From: Girardia tigrina
Taxonomy: Eukaryota
Reading direction: 5' to 3'
NCBI GenBank assembly: GCA_001938485.1
Contig: MQRK01248235.1
Location: forward strand, 1 to 64,000
DNA: 64,000 bases
The stretch's first letter is position 1. Every line of letters begins with the position of its first letter. Below the pieces are notes generated by a model. The model saw only the letters and a list, made by a program, of their open reading frames with translations, had not been told where the DNA came from and did no database searches. The position numbers were made by a program, and so were the translations under genes. Positions 39,897-40,070 of this stretch are shown here, piece by piece.

Positions 39897-40070
39897 GTTG
39901 CCATGGCAACAGTCCTTTTTACCATAGCAACGGTTCCAGTTAACTTGGTAACGGTAACCGAGGTCTTAGTTACCATAGCAACGGTAACCAAGGGACGTTT
40001 TTCATTTGCAATGGATACAGTAATTCAAGGCGGTTGTAACCATGGTAACGGTTACCGTATCCATAGCAAC
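39897..40070. promoter_or_regulatory. Cluster of seven RFX X-box-like palindromes in the left TIR (partly mirrored at 47994-48113)
   Basis: GTTGCCATGGCAAC 39897, TTTACCATAGCAAC 39918, GTTAACTTGGTAAC 39939, GTTACCATAGCAAC 39969, TTTGCAATGGATAC 40005, GTAACCATGGTAAC 40036, GTATCCATAGCAAC 40057. The X-box consensus is GTNRCC-N(0-3)-RGYAAC. Confidence 0.65.

Follow-up and report, generated by a model that had tools for sequence, protein, structure and literature searches.

A predicted array of RFX and NF-Y sites at the shared termini of gene-partitioned Polintons in Girardia tigrina

Polintons or Mavericks, also called Polintoviruses and adintoviruses, are bounded by terminal inverted repeats (TIRs) with AG...CT ends and by 6-bp target duplications (PMC8097293). 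They encode a DNA polymerase B that is primed by protein (pPolB), an rve-chromo integrase, an ATPase, and protease-like and capsid-like genes, and intact members hold all of the core genes in one unit of 12.7–24.6 kb (PMC8097293). Polinton remnants that have pPolB and lack an integrase are also on record (PMC11414722). The elements described here have the ends, the target duplications, and the genes of Polintons, but the genes are found in two types of element, A and B, of 6.5–9 kb each. Bidnaviruses, which are parvovirus-like and not known to integrate, offer a likeness. Their genome is in two segments whose termini match, and it encodes a pPolB (PMC8502044). The present system is instead a dsDNA Polinton, whose second segment has the integrase and the putative jelly-roll capsids.

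Adenovirus is a protein-primed replicon, and the auxiliary origin in its ITR consists of NFI and Oct-1 sites that lie immediately interior to the core end. The host-factor sites predicted below are similarly placed; the factors differ, being putatively RFX and NF-Y. The enhancer factor C (EF-C) of HBV is one viral RFX case. Another is the D sequence of the AAV ITR, an RFX1/RFX3 site in a viral terminal repeat that regulates expression (PMC5760533). The AAV work concerned one site, studied by EMSA and pull-down (PMC5760533), whereas what we describe is a predicted multi-copy 21-nt array with CCAAT boxes. In the MHC class II X-Y module, which uses RFX5 and NF-Y, and in RFX7 promoters, a CCTAGCAAC-like half-site is followed by an inverted CCAAT box on the same strand (PMC7866136, PMC11344851). 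The same arrangement is seen here, although with many tandem units and with no X2/CRE box seen. Neither an X-box or RFX array in Polinton TIRs nor a bipartite or complementing Polinton was found in the literature searched, with Repbase and most subscription papers lying outside its scope.

The window, that is, the whole stretch of 64,000 nucleotides of contig MQRK01248235.1 that was analysed, contains one type-A element, with the following features.

39837..39842, + strand: left target-site duplication, cgtaac, read from the sequence
39843..48159, + strand: decayed Polinton copy of type A, the replication module, 8.3 kb, recognised by termini, target-site duplication and gene content
39843..40800, + strand: left TIR, ~0.95 kb, common to types A, B, and C
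39897..39982, + strand: variable X-box array, with sites at 39897, 39918, and 39939 (21-nt period) and at 39969
39983..40091, + strand: fixed block, with a half-site at ~40006–40012, sites at 40036 and 40057, and a polymorphic site at 40078
40675..40688, + strand: weak inner-TIR X-box-like site, 3 mismatches, with counterparts at 47104 and 47247
41114..41554, − strand: TBP-like gene, 146–148 aa, one in-frame stop in the window copy, Pfam TBP and PDB match
41745..42581, + strand: orf2, one in-frame stop in the window copy, C-terminal domain a predicted OB fold
42721..46620, + strand: pPolB with a Cys-rich N-terminus, Pfam DNA_pol_B_2 and Endonuclease_7
47078..48159, − strand: right TIR, with X-box-like sites at 47992, 48059, 48080, and 48100
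48160..48165, + strand: right target-site duplication, cataac, one mismatch from the left, read from the sequence

The ends of the element, AGTAG...CTACT at 39843 and 48159, were read directly. The right TIR is missing the counterpart of ~40049–40364 and is broken by an unrelated repeat at ~47264–47708. That repeat is a high-copy one, and a similar stretch lies at 16771–16886 of the window. Elsewhere in the window, ORF translations alone point to two decayed mariner-like transposases (34896–35924 and 27229–28239) and to a gypsy-like LTR element with gaps (53900–57970). The pPolB of this copy is disrupted by stops and frameshifts. An "orf3" considered as a separate gene was rejected; it is the N-terminus of pPolB. 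Integrase, ATPase, and capsid genes are absent from the gene content of the element (39843..48159). Word shares in the sequencing runs are at most 0.13, and contigs from four runs cover the whole element, with DNA and RNA indistinguishable.

The TBP-like proteins form a compact family of ~145 aa with a shortened first repeat, the gene is paired with the SSB-fold gene, and the host genome has more than 1200 candidates. A model built from another natural copy has a pLDDT of 92 and a TM of 0.7–0.8 to TBP. Among MELD/Polinton-like viruses, a TBP-like gene has been labelled in a MELD virus (PMC8502044); the present family is set apart by the properties just given and by the purifying selection described below. 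Compact TBP-like genes, mostly beside an SSB-fold gene, are also present in the metagenome Polintons L115, L126, L136, and L149; a ubiquitin-conjugating-like ORF is an additional feature of L126, and LRR genes were found in L135 and L140. The C-terminal domain of orf2 is predicted to be an ssDNA-binding OB fold of the T7 gp2.5/Enc34 type. Modelled from another natural copy, it matches phage SSBs with Z scores of 9.1, 8.6, and 8.1 and rmsd values of 2.7–3.2 over 105–110 aligned residues, the Foldseek E being >0.01. The ESM Atlas gave no usable match for orf2 or the Cys-rich ORF.

Some further sequence details of this copy can be mentioned. A perfect 121-nt inverted repeat at 40824–40944 and 41570–41690 brackets the TBP-like gene; it seems to be the product of a recent rearrangement at this site, since the other copies examined have the inner arm only. 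The sequence GCGGGAATTTGAA, at 41586–41598 (also 40916–40928), lies ~30 nt upstream of the TBP-like start and is found in 9 of 20 type-A copies. We take it to be an E2F/CHR-like element, which suggests cell-cycle control; at this position, elements of a third type, C, have tandem TTTGAA instead. The inner TIR, at 40100–40570 of the window, has six dispersed copies of AAAGTGCT and three of ATCGAT, possibly a second binding-site array.

Six sites within three mismatches of GTTRCCATGGYAAC lie at 39897, 39918, 39939, 39969, 40036, and 40057. The site at 39897 is a perfect GTTGCCATGGCAAC, 54 nt inside the terminus at 39843. In 1000 dinucleotide shuffles of 39843–40130 (288 bp), the mean number of such sites was 0.057 and the maximum 1, and the cluster is far above chance. 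Outside the element, the 55,683 bases of the window hold a single site within three mismatches of the RFX palindrome. Seven X-boxes had been counted by the initial annotation. The six full sites, with the first one perfect and 54 nt from the terminus, stand; the seventh is not a full site and is probably the half-site near 40006–40012, decayed in the window copy, as is the polymorphic site at 40078. The sites said to be kept in the right TIR are present at the four positions listed above, and the weaker ones placed near 40677, 47094, and 47247 were found at 40675, 47104, and 47247. The assignment of the neighbouring host gene to a coiled-coil family of cilia and sperm was not confirmed: 0 of 17 flanking ORF pieces pass the Pfam cut-off, and IFT57 was matched at an E of 0.21 only. 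As a whole, the earlier reading of the TIR as a recruiter of host RFX is partly supported. It overlooked the absence of integrase and capsid genes from the element, and that this TIR belongs to two complementary element types.

In the host genome there are 3306 candidates for the TIR, of which 40 were scored. From 71 distinct ends, 46 with a recognisable terminus were retained, and 45 remained after the rearranged L209 was dropped. All 45 termini have at least two sites within two mismatches (20/20 of type A, 9/9 of type B, 16/16 untyped), and 38 have at least one exact GTTRCCATRGYAAC, counts that are not independent, because the outer array is tandem-amplified and the copies are related. The first site lies at nt 46–76 from the end. 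The units are most often spaced by 21 nt (48 cases), and their number and order vary between copies, so that the outer array is 88–404 nt long. The array appears confined to this family. A second Polinton clade in the host genome has no X-box site in eight ends of four elements, those among seven loci that have both TIRs. In 40 metagenome loci from relatives with a TBP-like gene there is one site in total, and few of these loci extend to an end. IMG/VR scans gave no match for the tandem X-box pattern, the family pPolB, or the TBP-like profile. On these sequences, the array is lineage-specific, without deep conservation. The elements of the second clade (L047–L066; G000 contigs C216488, C234344, C234723, and C238657) are 11.6–18.9 kb long and have TIRs without X-boxes; PF21738 gives 1335 candidates for the clade, in many of which the capsid frame is open, and some elements have CGCTCGCTTCG-type repeats.

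A first, unadjusted test of column conservation was null (p 0.11 and 0.79). When core X-box columns were compared with other TIR columns of the same base class, in a post hoc test that left out the polymorphic site 40078, they showed less variation (G/C p 0.022, A/T p 0.08). The permutation p for the core is 0.004 without site 40078 and 0.58 with it, and a median test is non-significant either way. With column classes taken from an RFX consensus, core columns are about as variable as second codon positions (G/C 0.059 vs. 0.062), and degenerate columns, three only, are about as variable as 4-fold sites (0.143 vs. 0.145). Selection on the X-box core columns is equivocal. The conservation of sites across copies is a mixed result: the sites are present in 45 of 45 termini, part of this is tandem amplification, and the outcome of the column test depends on whether site 40078 is counted.

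A second motif, the inverted CCAAT box CTGATTGG, is found in 23 of the 45 ends, with 30 forward occurrences and no reverse one; the window copy's own array has no CTGATTGG. In 15 of the 30 cases, an intact half-site ends 25 nt upstream of CTGATTGG, and the unit 4 nt before the box is intact in 10 of 30 cases vs. 57 of 71 elsewhere, in copies that are related and give non-independent counts. An offset of 25 nt is the spacing in HLA-DRA, and it also follows from 4 + 21. The palindrome GTTGCCA-TGGCAAC is described for most RFX proteins, and CCTAGCAACA, near CCAAT boxes, for RFX5/7 (PMC11344851). The array units match both of these published shapes, and the inner units look like the half-site of RFX5/7 combined with CCAAT. 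The order, orientation, and spacing of X and Y boxes are reported as fixed (PMC7866136), and the X-Y link may reach RFX1–3 too (PMC7498320). The host genome encodes an RFX1-like domain, an RFX5-like (RFX5/7-type) domain, and NF-YA genes. The RFX1-like exon is on three contigs (L031–L033) that have a 100% identical 3.2-kb stretch, probably an assembly redundancy.

The metagenome relatives L115 and L126 have TBP-like, ATPase, integrase, putative capsid, and pPolB genes on one contig. A search of the host genome with their putative capsid gene gave 718 candidates and led to the second element type, B. Type B has the same TIR and, in order, a short ORF, the ATPase, the rve-chromo integrase, a putative minor capsid, a 136-aa ORF, a putative major capsid, a protease-like ORF, and a short ORF. 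Pfam and homology back the integrase and the ATPase. The putative capsids and the protease-like ORF have no Pfam match, and we presume their identity from gene order, size, and motifs; the short ORFs of 110, 114, and 136 aa have no Pfam match either. The type A family, in turn, has pPolB, the SSB-fold protein, and the TBP-like protein.

All 41 A-anchored and all 30 B-anchored stretches have family-level genes of their own type only. The two gene sets are together in 0 of these 71 stretches, which have a median of ~10 kb and a minimum of ~2 kb, come from a fragmented assembly, and sample the top-scoring hits. With the gene sets so divided, pPolB and the integrase were not seen inside one TIR pair in these stretches; they are found together in L115 and L126 at the contig level. 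Upstream of the B ATPase, 18 of 19 flanks of at least 1 kb show the TIR, and none of 30 has an A gene. Downstream of the B protease, the TIR was seen in 11 of 15, and there is one distant polymerase fragment. Two candidate exceptions were set aside. The "A gene" downstream of the B protease in L246 is a 41% match in opposite orientation and was taken for a distant polymerase, and a pPolB tip in C185658, ~10 kb from a B element and beyond an unrelated integrase, was read as a separate copy. In contig C223287, A and B hits lie near each other. The partition of the genes between A and B is, with high confidence, real.

Perfect 6-bp target duplications flank C216139, C230143, and C232877 (A) and C222231 and L184 (B); those of the window element and C223974 have one mismatch. 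The B junction is common to 30 copies; it follows that B arose once. The A junction is spanned by five copies only, and the polymerase is inverted in some A copies. For variants shared by at least three copies, omega is 0.13–0.40, compared with 0.84–1.43 for private variants (7 of 8 gene pieces). The low shared values cover pPolB and the TBP-like gene as well as the capsid, integrase, ATPase, and protease, and the value for orf2, 0.68, is non-significant. Shared variants are under purifying selection in both A and B. In a weakly resolved TIR tree of 66 rows, A, B, and C are intermixed, and they cluster no better than shuffled labels.

Type C has the TBP-like, SSB, ATPase, and integrase genes together, adjoining the same TIR as A and B. 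Its proteins are 65–70% identical to those of A and B (TBP ~66%, ATPase ~70%), and in a deleted copy, L295, C-type genes are joined to pPolB across the deletion. The C copies of TBP are a median of 3.3% apart, vs. 8.1% for those of A; type C is the younger relative. Type C is on short contigs, in which no complete copy and no outer terminus were found and the inner fixed-block sites are present. Type C is probably unsplit. Its gene order is likely the ancestral one, of which A and B would be complementary subsets.

We propose that RFX dimers and NF-Y of the host land on the array, which is placed at the ends shared by A and B halves that complement each other in trans. We favour this explanation on balance, with modest confidence. 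That RFX-family proteins bind the array is likely. Once bound, at 46–76 nt from the end, RFX and NF-Y would cause the terminus to open and turn on both halves in the same cell. The array would serve as an enhancer and perhaps also as an auxiliary origin, in the manner of host-factor sites in adenovirus ITRs, though it may instead be a repressor. By protein-primed strand displacement, the pPolB and SSB of A would replicate any molecule that bears such ends, and B would supply the integrase, the ATPase, and the capsid for integration and packaging. The integrase is assigned to B because A has none and yet has target duplications, and the mutual requirement is inferred from these duplications on the integrase-less A and from selection on the polymerase-less B. 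Both A and B would have to be on in one nucleus, and the common terminal RFX/NF-Y array would provide their co-activation. Co-replication of A and B would also give rise to a mixed pool of TIRs and to shuffled array units. It is tempting to go further and to see here a bipartite dsDNA endogenous animal virus, whose A and B segments are co-activated through recombining RFX/NF-Y arrays timed to one cell state, possibly in the germ line; this we put forward tentatively, as a possibility with the balance somewhat against it.

The shape of the sites bears on two other accounts of the array. In the 45 termini, RGCAAC is oriented inward 208 times and in reverse 22 times. In an alignment anchored on the spacer, the inner half, T-R-G-C-A-A-C, is best preserved and the outer half is variable; among diverged unit types, too, the half-site is constant while the other half changes. 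Selection for hairpins or cruciforms that serve strand-displacement replication or integration would fit the position of the palindromic cores, close to the end of a linear replicon, and the balance of RGTAAC and GTTACY (104 and 116). However, perfect palindromes make up 10 of the 72 exact sites, the other 62 have unpaired arms, and the commonest form (28 of 72) has two of them, with A/C mismatches. Together with the strongly one-directional RGCAAC, this makes the hairpin account very improbable, and a site that is degenerate on the left and strong on the right fits protein binding better. A minisatellite, generated by slippage and recombination at a protein-primed origin, would explain why the length, unit number, and unit order of the array differ between copies. 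Its likeness to X-boxes would then be incidental, or an element-encoded protein would bind it; the equivocal conservation test and the lack of an array in the other Polintons examined agree with such an origin. It leaves unexplained the half-site kept across diverged units and the repeated occurrence of CCAAT, another host motif, with its orientation and register fixed. As for an element-encoded binder, the accessory proteins of A are predicted to have TBP and SSB folds and no winged helix, but the short B ORFs (110, 114, and 136 aa) are possible binders. We regard the minisatellite origin as unlikely.

A landing pad for RFX and NF-Y also leaves room for different users of the array and different owners of the ends. 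The driver of the element could be the ciliogenic RFX1–3, acting specifically in ciliated cells or in the male germ line, with a spread of ciliary enhancers as a consequence. The outermost site, most often a perfect palindrome (9 of 45 termini), and the RFX1-like gene of the host would suit this account, and a planarian Rfx has been linked to cilia modules (PMC12660999). Yet many units, the inner ones among them, look more like an RFX5/7 half-site with CCAAT boxes; in mammals this module is broadly expressed (PMC11344851, PMC8287911), and RFX1, RFX5, and RFX7 are all ubiquitous there (PMC8287911). The claimed ciliary neighbour found no Pfam match above the cut-off among the flanking ORFs. Activity specific to ciliated or male germ cells is rather doubtful. 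The ends, for their part, could be the regulatory region of an unsplit helper, either C or an unsampled master, kept common by recombination, with A and B as its semi-defective satellites. A helper would agree with the single-piece order TIR-TBP-SSB-ATPase-integrase of C, with the connection to pPolB in L295, with the greater uniformity of the C copies of TBP, and with the scatter of C TIRs among those of A and B on the tree. Against a helper, the core genes are partitioned between A and B without overlap (a short o114-like match alone occurs in C), and both gene sets were under purifying selection during their spread. The A and B proteins are only 65–70% identical to those of C, and a complete C element was not seen on its short contigs. 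We think a helper improbable, though to be taken seriously, and lean slightly toward mutual complementation of A and B over a joint dependence on C.

For the question of how integrated Polintons are switched on, and in which cells, the array points to specific host factors. If the proposal is true, the split into A and B would be a natural record of genome segmentation arising, preserved in one genome as hundreds to thousands of dated copies, next to a relative that is probably not split. The thousands of TIR copies, for which there are 3306 candidates, could also scatter RFX/NF-Y sites through the DNA of the host.
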